Shown here piece after piece: positions 22,638-27,796 of a DNA stretch of 64,000 nt. The stretch spans positions 352,001 through 416,000 of the forward strand of contig JAAOZP010000017.1 in the NCBI GenBank assembly GCA_011605725.1. The letters run 5' to 3'. Under the pieces are notes generated by a model. It saw nothing but the letters and a program-made list of their open reading frames with translations. It had not been told where the DNA came from and ran no database searches. Source of the stretch: Nitrososphaerota archaeon. GTDB lineage: Archaea; Thermoproteota; EX4484-205; JAAOZP01. The first letter of the stretch is position 1. Every line of letters starts with the position of its first letter. Made by a program: the position numbers and the translations under genes.

Positions 22638-23498
22638 GTGATCATGGGAGACTGGACTAGGAGAATCTTCATAGAACGAGCTGATCTCTTTCTTAAAATC
22701 ATGAATGAGAAATGGATTAAAACAGAGGCTCTCGTCGACGGAATGATAAGGCTGCTTAAGGATTTCAACATTGAAAGCGGAAGGATACTGGATCTTTGCT
22801 GCGGAAACGGGAGGGTTGCAATAACCTTTGCTAAAAAGGGTTTCAGAGCCGTGGGCATCGATTTTTCCCCCATGTTTATCGAAGATGCTAAAGAAAAGGC
22901 AAGGGAGCTAGGCGTCTCTAAAAGGACCAGCTTCATATGTGGCGACGCTAGAAGACTCTTGAGCCTCGTGCCCAAGGATGCGTTTTTCGACGTAGTAACC
23001 AGTGTCTGGACATCAATAGGCTATTACAGTAAGGATGAAGACCTTTCAGTTTTCAAGCAGGCGAGAAAGCTAACAAGAGATGGAGGGATACTTTTCATAG
23101 CTGAGACAGTTCATAGAGATTCCCTAAACCTGAGTTTCTGCCCTTCATCGTTCACGCTCTACGAGAATATTGTTCTAGTTGAAGAAAGGAAGTGGGACGT
23201 GCTCACCTCTAAGCTTAGAACCACATGGTCTTTCTACGCGAAGAACGGTGATAACCTAAGGCTTATTGACAGAATCATGTTCGACATATACGTCTATAGC
23301 GTAAGCGAGCTTGCATCAATGTTGAGGGAAGCAGGTTGGGAAACCGTCGCAACATATGGGAACCTGGCTACTGGACAACTGTTCAGCCCCTGGACAGAGT
23401 TAAACCTGGTTGCGAAAACCACTAACATGCAGCATGATGAAAAAGGTAGTGGCACTACACAGTTTTTTAAAAAGACTGAAAGGAGTTTAAAGGATTAA
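22638..23498 (+). CDS. Class I SAM-dependent methyltransferase
   Basis: ILDLCCGNGR, GIDFS, GDAR, WTSIGYY. Confidence 0.88.
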   Translation: MIMGDWTRRIFIERADLFLKIMNEKWIKTEALVDGMIRLLKDFNIESGRILDLCCGNGRVAITFAKKGFRAVGIDFSPMFIEDAKEKARELGVSKRTSFICGDARRLLSLVPKDAFFDVVTSVWTSIGYYSKDEDLSVFKQARKLTRDGGILFIAETVHRDSLNLSFCPSSFTLYENIVLVEERKWDVLTSKLRTTWSFYAKNGDNLRLIDRIMFDIYVYSVSELASMLREAGWETVATYGNLATGQLFSPWTELNLVAKTTNMQHDEKGSGTTQFFKKTERSLKD

Positions 23499-24427
23499 GC
23501 TTCCTTAACACCCTCTAAAGCCTCGCGCAAACCCTTGTAGCGGTTACGAACAGTAACCTCAGTAACATTACTTGCTTCAGCAATCTGTTTTTGAGTGAAC
23601 AATTGTAAACCAAGCCTCTGCGTAGCAAGATACATCGCGGCCGCAACCATTCCAAGCGGGTCTTTACCAGCCGTGATCTTTTTCTCCTTAGCCTCTTTTA
23701 AAATTTTCAATGTTTCTCTCTCCACCTCCGGTCCGACTTTAAGCTTGCTCGCGACTTTTTCAACATATATCGCCGGGTCGCTGAGAGGCATTTTGCTTTC
23801 AAGCGACCTGATCAACAGCCTGTAGCTTCTCGCCACCTCCTTCCTCTTAAGCCCTGAAGCATTCGCAACCTCTTTAAGCGTCCTCGGGATTCCACTGTCT
23901 CTGCATGCTGCGTACAATGCTGCCGCCGCGAGACTGTTTATCGGTCTCCCCCTCACCAGTCCTCTTTCAAGAGCGTCACGATAGATCTGCACTGCCCTCG
24001 TGTATGTTGCCTTCGGCGCTTTAAGCTGGTCTGCTATCTGCGATATTACTTTACTCGCAACCTGCAGGTTTCTCTCCGCCGAGTTGTACGCCCTGTTTCT
24101 CTGCTGCCATAGTCTTAGCTTCTGGGCTTCAGCCATTGCTTTCTCAGAAAGCACTTTGCCAGTTGCGTCTTTAATTCCTGTTTCAAGCGTGGTTGATAGT
24201 CCATAATCATATATTGCTGTTGATAGGGGACTTCCAACCCTATCTCTTTTCTCTGATTCCTCGTCTCCAAATTCCCTCCATTCTTTCGACTCGTCAAGCA
24301 TCTTCTGCACGAGTACGAAGCCGCATGCTGAGCAATAGATTTCCCCAGACCTTTTATCCTCCACTATCTTCTTCGAGCCGCACTGGGGACATGCCCACCT
24401 CTGCAGCTCGTCTGATGGGAGGCTCAT
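23495..24427 (-). CDS. tfb: Transcription initiation factor IIB (TFB)
   Basis: CPQCGS..CSACG zinc ribbon, EWREF, RVGSP, two cyclin repeats, VTEVTVRNRY. Confidence 0.96.
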   Translation of the reverse strand: MSLPSDELQRWACPQCGSKKIVEDKRSGEIYCSACGFVLVQKMLDESKEWREFGDEESEKRDRVGSPLSTAIYDYGLSTTLETGIKDATGKVLSEKAMAEAQKLRLWQQRNRAYNSAERNLQVASKVISQIADQLKAPKATYTRAVQIYRDALERGLVRGRPINSLAAAALYAACRDSGIPRTLKEVANASGLKRKEVARSYRLLIRSLESKMPLSDPAIYVEKVASKLKVGPEVERETLKILKEAKEKKITAGKDPLGMVAAAMYLATQRLGLQLFTQKQIAEASNVTEVTVRNRYKGLREALEGVKEA

Positions 24428-24621
24428 CTCTCAAACCTCCTGCGGAAAAGCTTAAAAGCAGGTGCCATTTTCACTCAACCCTCCCATACCATTATTTAAA
24501 CTTTTCGCTTTTCCGGCCGAGTAGTCAAAAACCCCCTTCTCACGGTTTCCCCAGCCGAATAAACCCTTATTTCCCAGTTTCTCCCGGATGATTAAAACCG
24601 TTTAAAAGGGTTTAGAGTATT

Positions 24622-24639
24622 ATTTAGCGCACGCTAAAT
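24622..24639. repeat. Inverted repeat ATTTAGCG-CA-CGCTAAAT overlapping the dinB start (motif copy AGCGCACGCT)
   Basis: Perfect 8-bp arms seen directly in the sequence. Confidence 0.6.
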
Positions 24640-25780: not shown

Positions 25781-26058
25781 TACTTCCTCAAACATCCAGG
25801 CAATCCGTCACCACAGGCTTCCGTCAGTAGTGTGCACCGGATCTTCCGGAGACGAAGACAACGATACCAGCCATGGTTTGTCTTAGACACCGCATCCCGC
25901 CGGCTAATCCATATTCAAAAACCCTTAACCTCCCTGTTCCACCGGTTTTTATGCGCAGAACCATTGTCCTAATTGATGCTCATTTTCACACAACCCTCTC
26001 CCTCAAACGTTTACCTGCCTCCGTATTTTTAAAGACGGTTTCAAACGGCTTTTCAGCC

Positions 26059-27021
26059 ATGATGACGGAGTGCTCGCTTGAGGATATTGACGGCGTTGGG
26101 CCTGCGACGGCGAGGAAGCTCAGGGAAGCTGGCTTCGTAAGCATTGAGTCCCTAGCGGTTGCAACAGCATTCGAGATCTCCGAGGCTACTGGAATAGGCT
26201 ATGATACTGCTCTCAAGATCTCCCAGGCTGCCAGGGAGCTTGTCAAGATAGACCTGGTTACTGCAGACGAGGTTTTGAAGAGGAGGCAGCAGGCCCAGAA
26301 GATCACGACTGGAAGCAAAGCCTTAGACGCTCTTCTCGGGGGAGGAATCGAGACTCAAGCCATAACGGAGCTTGTTGGAGAATTCGGAACCGGGAAGACC
26401 CAGCTCTGCCACACTTTATGCGTGACAGTTCAGCTTCCCAAGGATAAGGGCGGGTTGGAGGCCGGCGCGTTATTCATAGATACTGAGGGGACGTTCAGGC
26501 CTGAGAGGATTGTTCAGATAGCTAGGAAACACAGGCTTGAAGCCGAGAAGGCTCTTAAGAACATTATCTACGCTAGAGTTTACAACTCTGATCATCAGGT
26601 TCTCTTGGTTGACAAGGCTTGGGAAATATGCAGTCAGCACCCAATAAGGCTGATTATCGTAGACTCTCTGACAAGCCAGTTCAGGGGAGAGTATCTTGGG
26701 AGGGAAGCGTTAGCCTTAAGGCAGCAGAGGCTTAACGGCCATGTTCACAAGCTGCTTAAGTTGGCTGAGGCTCTTAACCTTGCCGTTGTCGTTACTAACC
26801 AGGTTGTCGCTAACCCTGGCCAGTTCTTCGGAGACCCCAACAAGCCGGCAGGCGGGAACGTAGTTGCGCATGCAAGCACCTACAGGCTGTTTCTAAGGAA
26901 GGGTAAGGAGAATACCCGTGTTGCATGCCTCTTCGACGCTCCACACCTGCCTTATGGGGAGGCTTCTTTCCTCGTTGGTGAAGGCGGGGTTGTGGATTCG
27001 CCAGGATCCGAGTCTAGTTAA
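26059..27021 (+). CDS. radA: DNA recombinase RadA
   Basis: N-terminal HhH (GVGPATARKL), Walker A GEFGTGKT, IDTEGTFRPER, VDS, TNQV, GGNVVAH. Start re-set to ATG 26059. Confidence 0.93.
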   Translation: MMTECSLEDIDGVGPATARKLREAGFVSIESLAVATAFEISEATGIGYDTALKISQAARELVKIDLVTADEVLKRRQQAQKITTGSKALDALLGGGIETQAITELVGEFGTGKTQLCHTLCVTVQLPKDKGGLEAGALFIDTEGTFRPERIVQIARKHRLEAEKALKNIIYARVYNSDHQVLLVDKAWEICSQHPIRLIIVDSLTSQFRGEYLGREALALRQQRLNGHVHKLLKLAEALNLAVVVTNQVVANPGQFFGDPNKPAGGNVVAHASTYRLFLRKGKENTRVACLFDAPHLPYGEASFLVGEGGVVDSPGSESS

Positions 27022-27796
27022 ACGGTACTACGAGTCAGCAAGTATTCCGGTAAACCTGCCCTGGAAACTTAGCAGGAAGCATATCAGGATAGTTACTCGA
27101 GACGGGCGTTTCATAAAGCTTAACACGCTTAGAAACAGGATAAACTCTAAAGCATTATGGAGGCTCTGCGCCAAGTATGCTCCTACGCACGTCTGCATGA
27201 GCGTGCTCGACTACCTTTCCCCTGAGAAGGTTGGGCTGAGTAGCGAAGCAAGACATGCCTACCCTGTTGGCGGAGAGTATGTTGTCGACGTTGACAACTC
27301 CCTGTTTAGAGGGATAGATAGCCACGAGCATCCCAGGACACTGGTCTGCTACGAGTGTCTAGAGATTGTTAAGAAGTACACCATTAGAATCTGCGAACTC
27401 ATCGAGGAGAACTACAGCAACATAATTATAGTTTTCAGCGGCGTAAGGGGCTTCCACATTCATGTGCTCGACTTTCAGGCTGGAGACTGGGCTTCCTTCG
27501 ACGGGCACAACCTGTTTAAGAGTCACAAGGCCGCCAGGTTTCGCTACACCCTCCACCTCTCTAGGATGCTTGACACGCTTTTAGATAAGTCCCGTTTCAC
27601 GCTCTCAGTAGACCCGATGAAGGCTATAGCTGTTCCCTACTCTCTCAACGCCTCCACCATGCTGGTTTGCAGACCCGTAGGAAGCAGAATAGACCTTGAG
27701 AGGAAGAGCGTAACCAAGATACTCGACGAGGCAAACCCGGCTCTATTAATATGGCCGGTTAAAGCCATCTCTGAGCAACACGTCGAGTTTCAGTAA
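26990..27796 (+). CDS. Divergent archaeo-eukaryotic primase (PriS-like) protein
   Basis: EYVVDVD (motif I), H.H..C..C zinc site, FSGVRGFH (motif II), D..K...PYSLN. TTG start with GGTGA 8 nt upstream, overlapping the radA end. Confidence 0.75.
   Translation: MWIRQDPSLVKRYYESASIPVNLPWKLSRKHIRIVTRDGRFIKLNTLRNRINSKALWRLCAKYAPTHVCMSVLDYLSPEKVGLSSEARHAYPVGGEYVVDVDNSLFRGIDSHEHPRTLVCYECLEIVKKYTIRICELIEENYSNIIIVFSGVRGFHIHVLDFQAGDWASFDGHNLFKSHKAARFRYTLHLSRMLDTLLDKSRFTLSVDPMKAIAVPYSLNASTMLVCRPVGSRIDLERKSVTKILDEANPALLIWPVKAISEQHVEFQ

Follow-up and report, generated by a model that had tools for sequence, protein, structure and literature searches.

Gene organisation of the locus

The window analysed here, a stretch of 64,000 nucleotides (G000:C7:352001-416000), comes from an uncultured hot-spring archaeon of the Brockarchaeota, whose assembly (G000) comprises 2.23 Mb in 20 contigs and is 93% complete; public records of its close relatives carry the labels Candidatus Brockarchaeota, Thermoproteota or Nitrososphaerota. 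Genes in the window were called from a listing of open reading frames (ORFs) combined with Pfam matches. Positions 25981-27796 hold a predicted self-contained accessory operon of about 1.8 kb, which consists of a conserved upstream block, a TATA-like box, a gene for a second RadA recombinase (radA2) and an overlapping gene for a compact PriS-like archaeo-eukaryotic primase (AEP). The parts of this unit, termed the cassette below, are:

25981-26017, plus strand: conserved block of 37 nt, consensus ACTTTCACNCAACCCTCTCCCTCAAGCGTTTACCT, the left boundary of the cassette as delimited by blastn edges
26027-26035, plus strand: TATA-like box TTTTTAAAG, read from the sequence, about 25 nt upstream of the radA2 ATG
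26059-27021, plus strand: radA2, 320 aa, Pfam Rad51 (3.9e-92) and HHH_5; the long ORF spans 25873-27021
26990-27796, plus strand: compact PriS-like AEP ('mini-PriS'), 268 aa, PF01896 at 31.5 bits; the ORF spans 26918-27796

Conservation of the radA2-AEP pair

Comparisons within the genus drew on a set of 17 genomes including G000, nine of which form subclade A. Searches with the window proteins (tblastn) located eight Brockarchaeota loci, in G000, G002, G006, G007, G012, G016 and two further metagenome-assembled genomes (MAGs), and at all eight radA2 lies directly upstream of the AEP gene and overlaps it. An earlier reading of this DNA, made from its letters alone (the sequence-only reading), had placed radA and AEP in one cluster with the preceding dinB gene, beside tfb, and had proposed that conservation of the neighbourhood be checked: the adjacency of radA and AEP is kept at every locus found, whereas the membership of dinB and tfb did not survive the comparison. 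At one of the loci (L098:2497-3526; a Brockarchaeota MAG of 2.9x coverage), the radA2 upstream of the AEP gene is split over two frames, owing either to an error of assembly or to a true frameshift.

Intact radA2 and intact AEP genes occur in the identical 6 of the 17 genus genomes, all of them within a subclade whose canonical RadA proteins are 97-99% identical, and remnant copies contain pieces of both genes. The two genes are co-inherited and co-lost in this one subclade of a Brockarchaeota genus. No other gene is common to the cassette loci, except that a HEPN/MNT pair directly 3' of the AEP gene is shared with G002, the closest relative and the only genome in which it is syntenic with the cassette; this pair is treated as context only. 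Between genomes, the ratio of nonsynonymous to synonymous substitution rates (dN/dS) takes values of 0.04-0.10 in RadA2 and of 0.12-0.31 in the AEP, compared to about 0.01 in the canonical RadA. The highest AEP value, 0.31, is that of the G000-G002 comparison, for which RadA2 gives 0.05. These ratios indicate that both genes are under purifying selection, yet evolve much faster than the core recombinase. Their GC content at third codon positions (GC3) also differs, amounting to 0.59-0.61 for radA2 and the AEP gene versus 0.49-0.51 for tfb, dinB and the canonical RadA and PriS genes.

A second, divergent RadA

Two full-length RadA genes are present in the genome, the window copy and one at C11:75609-76538, whose products share 50% identity. 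The suspicion that the window RadA may be a second copy was therefore correct. The C11 RadA is found as one copy in every genus genome with enough sequence and is 92-99% identical within the genus. Since its identity to RadAs from relatives of the same order is 66-71%, while RadA2 reaches only 46-55% to all of these, the C11 copy is regarded as the vertical orthologue. In a maximum-likelihood tree of RadA proteins, the C11 copy groups with its own order and RadA2 forms a separate clade (SH-aLRT 99), which is weakly placed as sister to the second RadA of G015, another member of the genus. This distant placement argues that RadA2 is a xenologue or an old paralogue and no recent duplicate; within the subclade, the RadA2 tree shows no conflict with vertical descent. 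The opposite picture, a 'typical' RadA2 next to an odd C11 copy, arose from a biased hit list and was ruled out by the identities to an unbiased set of relatives, which for same-order RadAs are 66-71% with the C11 copy and 49-53% with RadA2. Two full-length RadA genes per genome, in two clades of the RadA tree, also occur in G015 (G015:C6:14875-15813; L060), G032 (C1) and G034. Such two-RadA Thermoproteota genomes possibly reflect an old RadA duplication or repeated transfer, and the G015 copy is found without an adjacent AEP gene.

Scored against NCBIfam equivalog models, RadA2 reaches 461.5 bits with NF003301 (cut-off 259) and 447.7 bits with TIGR02236 (cut-off 361.15), and the vertical RadA of the same genome scores slightly lower with both (433.6 and 429.8 bits). 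By these profile hidden Markov models, RadA2 classifies as a bona fide RadA. Its Pfam domains lie at residues 69-122 (HHH_5) and 137-375 (Rad51) of the long ORF, and Walker A (GEFGTGKTQ), Walker B (LIIVDS) and the L2 region (NQV...GG) are intact in 5/5 RadA2 orthologues. Given scores above the equivalog cut-offs and the retention of the ATPase and L2 motifs, RadA2 looks active. One deviation is found at the position of the FxxA polymerisation motif, which reads L-V-T-A (KIDLVTADEV) in all five orthologues, with Leu in place of Phe. Of 16 other RadAs shown in the alignment, 13 carry Phe here and three have Trp, Val or Thr; two of these three are divergent paralogues, and Leu is itself hydrophobic.

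The sequence-only reading had described a full-length RadA. An ORF at 25873-27021 with HhH_5 and Rad51 domains bears this out, but its long start does not hold: all orthologues align to the long ORF only from about residue 52-62 and the TATA-like sequence TTTTTAAAG lies about 25 nt upstream of ATG 26059, so that this ATG is the probable start of radA2.

A compact PriS-type AEP

The AEP ORF overlaps the 3' end of radA and can be read, as first described, from TTG 26990 with GGTGA upstream. An in-frame ATG at 26954 represents an alternative start, which is used by a public gene call (280 aa). Depending on the start, the overlap with radA2 amounts to 32 nt (TTG 26990) or 68 nt (ATG 26954), in the +1 frame, and suggests translational coupling and matched dosage of the two putative partners. 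A RadA2-AEP fusion by +1 frameshifting was also considered; the frames are compatible and nothing supports it.

The motifs named in the sequence-only reading can all be read directly in the translation, as DVD, SGVRGFH, H-x-H...C-x-x-C and MKAIAVP. The protein matches Pfam PF01896 (DNA_primase_S) at 31.5 bits (cut-off 26.8) and fails the PriS equivalogs, with 36.4 bits for TIGR00335 (cut-off 143.5) and 37.2 bits for NF001641 (cut-off 326). On C11, a PriS of the canonical type (376 aa) is encoded next to a PriL (342 aa). This PriS is the stronger PF01896 match and passes TIGR00335 with 153.1 bits; the best match of its neighbour is PriL, the only PriL match of the genome. The proposed search for a canonical priS/priL pair elsewhere thus had a positive outcome, the AEP is not the sole PriS of the genome, and the remark that no PriL adjoins it was accurate, as the single PriL sits beside the canonical PriS. 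Because the canonical PriS-PriL pair and the vertical RadA are located on another contig, the window radA and AEP genes are extra copies.

Members of the AEP family have about 255-295 aa and were found in Brockarchaeota (58-81% identity) and Bathyarchaeia (36-47%). The family comprises 65 clusters in a set of 5.8 billion proteins and, among 1.8 billion representatives, 160 at E up to 1e-3 and 14 at E up to 1e-30, with many of the 160 being fragments. In an alignment of 25 members, GGEYVVDVD with the DxD motif is invariant and the HxH...CxxC knuckle nearly so, and VFSGxxGFHIHV and SVDPMR.I.VP.SLN, which contains the Asp of motif III, are kept as well. The best hits of a family profile are structures of archaeal PriS (E 7e-12 to 3e-8), matched in two stretches (PriS residues 57-157 and 273-313), which implies that about 115 residues between PriS motifs II and III are missing. 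An hhalign comparison with the PriS of the same genome gives 94.8% probability, with large insertions exclusive to PriS. The AlphaFold2 model of the AEP (pLDDT 81, pTM 0.82) retrieves archaeal PriS first in Foldseek (probability 1.00, E 1.8e-9), then eukaryotic Pri1, with LigD/Prim-PolC structures appearing only from rank 38 on (E 1e-6 to 1e-5), after every PriS entry; no Prim-Pol match was obtained in Pfam or NCBIfam. Profile and predicted fold together assign the AEP to a compact PriS type, not to the PrimPol/LigD type, and, given the conservation of the catalytic motifs across the family and the match to the PriS fold, it looks active.

Compared with canonical archaeal PriS (1G71, 1V33, 9F26, 1ZT2/5OF3), the mini-PriS shares the fold of the AEP proper, the Zn knuckle between motifs I and II, DxD, SGxxG(F/Y)HxH and a motif III Asp followed by R..P.S(L/I)(N/H). 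It differs in being about 110 residues shorter, owing to the missing region between motifs II and III, in lacking a PriL next door, in scoring far below the equivalog cut-offs and in its separate phylogenetic placement. In the tree, the family forms a clade distinct from Thermoproteota PriS, in which the Brockarchaeota members are one nested subclade. The libraries searched contain no name for this compact PriS-like family (about 260 aa), and neither the family nor a RadA-AEP operon was found described in a literature search, which did not cover subscription journals. A distant relative of 324 aa (31% identity) is encoded in a genome of the same order (G023:C10:22640-23410; L035:9572-10546) without an adjacent RadA gene; in the tree it falls with the family, outside its 16-member core.

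The window copy is somewhat aberrant within its family. Of 60 positions with a conservation of at least 90% among the remaining members, seven are changed in it (Y69C, R80K, K84S, P175L, F198L, H202R and R211K), the maximum among the 25 sequences (0-5 in the others), and Y69 and R211 are otherwise invariant. The catalytic residues are intact despite these changes. One explanation, which is compatible with the other readings discussed below, is that the AEP gene of G000, perhaps together with the whole cassette, is becoming a pseudogene. The seven substitutions, the highest AEP dN/dS in G000-G002 and the common decay of other copies speak for it; the intact reading frame, the retained catalytic residues, motif II and Zn knuckle, an AEP dN/dS that at 0.31 still denotes constraint and the value of 0.05 for RadA2 against G002 make it improbable.

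With regard to contacts between the two proteins, no FxxA-like motif by which the AEP could dock on RadA2 was seen when its sequence was read by eye. Co-folding of RadA2 with the AEP returned a score of 0.00 with the tool verdict 'no answer', which was counted neither for nor against binding.

Boundary block and promoter

Similarity of the window to six other cassette copies (blastn) starts each time at 25980-25984 and ends at 27754-27777 or about 70 nt past the AEP stop codon, at a hairpin-like sequence. The block of 37 nt at the left edge is nearly invariant while the coding DNA is only about 73% identical, and it is a probable regulatory or promoter-upstream element. An A/T-rich box is found at the TATA-like position in all aligned copies, and TTTTTAAAG presumably serves as a promoter TATA-like box. 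A scan of 23000-31500 against Rfam (E up to 1) gave no match and thus places neither the conserved block nor the hairpin downstream in a known RNA family.

The 15-nt core of the block, TTTCACNCAACCCTC, occurs as three exact copies in the genome against 0.016 expected, namely in the radA2 promoter, upstream of a C5 gene for a protein of 526 aa and at 24469-24483 in the spacer between tfb and dinB. The copy in the spacer is positioned about 42 nt 5' of the ATG of tfb, within a stretch of about 85 nt that is nearly invariant in five genomes and whose conservation ends before the next gene, whichever that is. As it is conserved beside tfb also where dinB is not adjacent, the motif is a feature of the sequence upstream of tfb, not of dinB, and as a sign of co-regulation of dinB it would be weak evidence at best. 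It may represent a binding site of a regulator common to tfb and the cassette; alternatively, the promoter block of the cassette may derive from the tfb promoter. Versions of the block of 35-37 nt were also observed at G000:C5:72130-72164 and at G000:C20:36517-36551, 26923-26957, the C20 copies being degenerate. The block also precedes the genes of two paralogous proteins of about 500 aa of no known family and is present in 8 of the 16 other genus genomes.

Neighbouring genes

The genes that flank the cassette in the window and the second copy of the motif core are:

23495-24427, minus strand: tfb, principal transcription factor B (TFB), Pfam TFIIB repeats (8.3e-37) and Zn ribbon
24466-24483, plus strand: second copy of the motif core (CATTTTCACTCAACCCTC), direct repeat D3 of 25981-25998, 94% identical
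24638-25780, plus strand: dinB, Y-family DNA polymerase IV, Pfam IMS (2.9e-47), IMS_C and HhH
27845-28751, plus strand: HEPN and nucleotidyltransferase (MNT) toxin-antitoxin-type pair, Pfam HEPN (7.7e-28) and NTP_transf_2 (6e-12)

Both the TFB with its Zn ribbon and two TFIIB repeats and the Y-family polymerase with IMS, IMS_C and HhH domains are present where the sequence-only reading had placed them. The polymerase scores 287.5 bits with the NCBIfam Pol IV model NF002677 (cut-off 256) and is the sole dinB copy of G000. Among the 17 genus genomes, dinB was found in 11, some of which lack the cassette, and it adjoins the cassette only in G000; in G002, G006, G007 and G016 it is found on a different contig or at a distance of 38 kb, and in the cassette genome G012, whose assembly is 70% complete, it was not found. 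In G000 itself, a gap of 278 nt with a separate predicted promoter separates dinB from radA2. The label 'divergent' for tfb proved inappropriate, since the gene gives the best TFIIB match of the genome and is 96-98% identical in G002, G003, G007 and G010, where the synteny of a methylase gene with tfb is kept without an adjacent dinB. By these criteria tfb encodes the main housekeeping TFB of the genome, and dinB and tfb are most simply viewed as incidental neighbours of the cassette. The only other TFIIB-like match of the genome is weak (C11:69561-69824; 21 bits, 330-aa frame) and lies about 6 kb from the canonical radA, an arrangement that mirrors tfb and radA2 in the window and is possibly a coincidence.

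The proposal of the sequence-only reading that tfb, dinB, radA and AEP form one damage-tolerance locus, comparable to a 'mutasome' under a dedicated TFB, was not sustained. The four genes are contiguous in G000 and the 18-nt motif common to the tfb-dinB spacer and the radA2 promoter could mean joint regulation. However, the motif belongs to the main conserved TFB gene, a separate promoter and the long gap lie between dinB and radA2, and in four other cassette genomes dinB is located elsewhere, and it is also present in genomes without the cassette; with dinB beside the pair only in G000 and tfb encoding a housekeeping factor, a single four-gene module is quite unlikely. What held up is the core of the proposal, a second RadA whose gene is coupled to that of an AEP other than the replicative one.

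Turnover of the cassette

Decayed copies of the cassette are spread over several genomes. In G000, a remnant at C12:18273-18857 (L037:9773-10367), directly downstream of an Orc1/Cdc6 gene (L037:8447-9664), joins, through an internal deletion, RadA2 residues of about 171-218 (numbered on the long ORF) directly to AEP residues 110-266. As a remnant on C5 of G002 shares its downstream sequence, it predates the split of G000 and G002. Other decayed pieces are located on C5 and C63 of G002, C39, C102 and C6 of G006, C1 and C4 of G008 and C37 of G010, and a partial radA2 on C11 of G007. In addition, G000 C5 and G016 C1 keep the 37-nt block upstream of a gene for a 526-aa protein of no known family, G016 C1 together with roughly the first 27 nt of radA2. 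At both sites this is fused to sequence that is located 3' of the AEP gene in L100, where radA2-AEP immediately precedes the homologous gene. The two junctions look like independent deletion scars of a former radA2-AEP copy, as judged by alignment of:

G000:C5:72130-72200 (L065:1485-1640): first scar, compared with L100:2070-2240
G016:C1:27111 (L070:1485-1660): second scar, compared with L100:2070-2240

Hallmarks of mobile elements were searched for. No integrase or transposase is encoded within about 15 kb on either side of the cassette or in the annotated flanks of the other copies, and the cassette ends of three copies show no convincing terminal inverted repeats (target-site duplications were not looked for). 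Searches of IMG/VR viral contigs and of phage and plasmid records gave no relatives of the AEP, nor did it match PHROGs. These data bear on a rival explanation, according to which radA2 and mini-PriS constitute the recombination/replication module of an integrated plasmid, virus or self-copying element, a selfish or mobile-element-derived cassette that spreads within genomes by duplication and then decays, with little benefit to the host. The sharp left boundary at 25981 common to six copies and the defined right end, flanks that change among genomes, several decayed copies per genome with deletion scars, the deviant GC3 relative to core genes and the fact that RadA2 is no recent duplicate of the host RadA all fit such an origin, as does the setting of one Bathyarchaeial homologue, which is surrounded by small ORFs and genes for an RHH protein, a methylase and a ligase. 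Integrase, transposase, terminal inverted repeats and relatives in IMG/VR, phages, plasmids or PHROGs are nevertheless missing from the searches above, although archaeal elements are poorly sampled, and a RadA2 subclade tree that fits vertical descent and the purifying selection on both genes also count against it. On balance, a selfish cassette is somewhat unlikely.

A more specific version, in which the 1.8-kb unit would be a minimal self-propagating copy-and-paste element that works without integrase or transposase, entering new sites through recombination-dependent DNA synthesis by its own recombinase and primase-polymerase, appears highly improbable; here, the conserved block, which is also present in the host tfb promoter, would be a homology or recognition site.

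The flanks of the cassette contain ordinary chromosomal genes interspersed with assorted toxin-antitoxin-type pairs, which comprise HEPN/MNT and MazE/PIN in G000 and G002, PIN/RHH in G007 and AbiEii in G012. A two-gene defence or conflict system, in which a RecA-family ATPase and a nucleotide polymerase act against invading DNA within a toxin-antitoxin or defence islet, would account for these neighbours in four genomes and also for the patchy distribution, the fast evolution of the AEP and the frequent decay. Against PADLOC-DB 2.0, however, the AEP gave no match and RadA2 only a weak one to mad8 (5.4e-7, over the P-loop region), and RadA2 scores as a bona fide RadA equivalog. We know of no defence system that pairs an active RadA with a PriS-like AEP, and consider this role doubtful.

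Possible function of the pair

A RadA-coupled primase-polymerase that would act in recombination or lesion bypass, as the sequence-only reading proposed, is a plausible idea. The reading that we tentatively favour, with a good deal of reserve, is that RadA2 and mini-PriS act jointly in recombination-coupled DNA synthesis. It is preferred because of the strict linkage and overlap of the two genes, the intact active-site motifs and the known capacities of PriS-type AEPs, which in archaea polymerise DNA and take part in double-strand-break repair (PMC12019639). In such a scheme, a RadA2 filament on single-stranded DNA would form a D-loop at a break or a stalled fork, and synthesis by mini-PriS, which would either elongate the invading 3' end or prime the displaced strand, would follow with no need for PriL. 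The pair would thereby constitute an auxiliary repair or restart module outside bulk replication.

Several observations weigh against this joint role. The cassette is present in 6 of the 9 genomes of subclade A; G008 has only fragments of it, and none was detected in G009 and G010 (89-92% complete). Its flanks are different in each genome, and decayed copies and deletion scars are present at other loci. The Phe of the self-polymerisation motif is replaced by Leu in the predicted RadA2, and the window AEP, given its substitutions, may be drifting under relaxed constraint. Finally, the AEP homologues of Bathyarchaeia stand alone, with no adjacent RecA-family gene, which implies that the AEP needs no RadA. 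A selfish or mobile-element-derived cassette accounts for the evidence about as well as the idea of a RadA-coupled primase-polymerase does.

As to the Bathyarchaeial loci themselves, no conserved neighbours were detected around the AEP gene, even between loci whose AEPs are 76% identical, and two of the loci have unrelated superfamily 2 (SF2) helicases nearby. At L114, a RadA gene lies 3 kb from the AEP homologue on the opposite strand, which is taken as coincidence. The upstream ORF of locus L041 was checked as a possible RadA and is not one.

Comparison with known systems

In the bacterial mutasomes ImuA-ImuB-DnaE2 and Pol V (UmuD'2C-RecA), a RecA-family protein is coupled to an error-prone polymerase; these systems are SOS-regulated and ImuA is a degenerate RecA. 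The radA2-AEP pair may be likened to them, an analogy drawn in the sequence-only reading, in the coupling of a RecA-family protein with a polymerase, the polymerase families being unrelated. The closest published archaeal parallel, likewise a pairing of a polymerase with a RadA-family protein, is the PolB2-PPB2-iRadA operon, in which a non-replicative polymerase and a RadA homologue are proposed to form a damage-tolerance mutasome (PMC11791011). Its polymerase belongs to family B, PPB2 is a third small protein, and iRadA lacks the N-terminal domain and the ATPase residues (PMC11791011). In contrast, the polymerase of the cassette is an AEP, RadA2 is full-length with intact ATPase motifs, and there is no third conserved gene. 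A further group for comparison consists of the AEPs of mobile elements (pRN1 ORF904, PolpTN2 and the PrimPol-PV1 supergroup), which are stand-alone enzymes apart from the replicative primase, often accompanied by a RecA-fold or other NTPase. They are able to prime and extend, and some also to bypass lesions or join ends (PMC5862659, PMC3973330, PMC11724360). These are usually fused to, or then followed by, helicases or PriCT/PriL-like domains, whereas here the partner is a true RadA and the AEP a bare PriS-type catalytic domain.

How homologous recombination is coupled to DNA synthesis in archaea is poorly understood, and the one report found of a RadA homologue paired with a polymerase in archaea concerns an inactive RadA and PolB2 (PMC11791011). 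An apparently active RadA next to a bare PriS-type domain would offer a compact, reconstitutable system, which could show whether an AEP gets recruited to D-loops and primes or extends there without PriL. The compact PriS-like family also illustrates a minimal PriS core, and, to judge by the pattern of turnover, a recombinase-polymerase pair might also serve in mobility or conflict. Since all members come from uncultured Brockarchaeota and Bathyarchaeia, the value of the finding is that of a biochemical lead rather than of a settled function.

Other features of the window

Downstream of the HEPN/MNT pair, a MazE/PIN-like pair (29102-29709, minus strand) lies within repeated DNA (28996-29837) that is 89% identical to C4:62541-63389. 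A second repeated stretch (29942-30780; ORFs 30046-30796, of which ORF 30107-30796 belongs to no Pfam family) has copies of 72-89% identity on C20, C11 and C4. On the other side of the cassette, a DUF4838/GH67N-like protein of glycoside-hydrolase type is encoded at 19756-21456 of the window, and in G007 fucosidase and raffinose-synthase-like genes are found close to the cassette, the flanks being ordinary carbohydrate metabolism genes.

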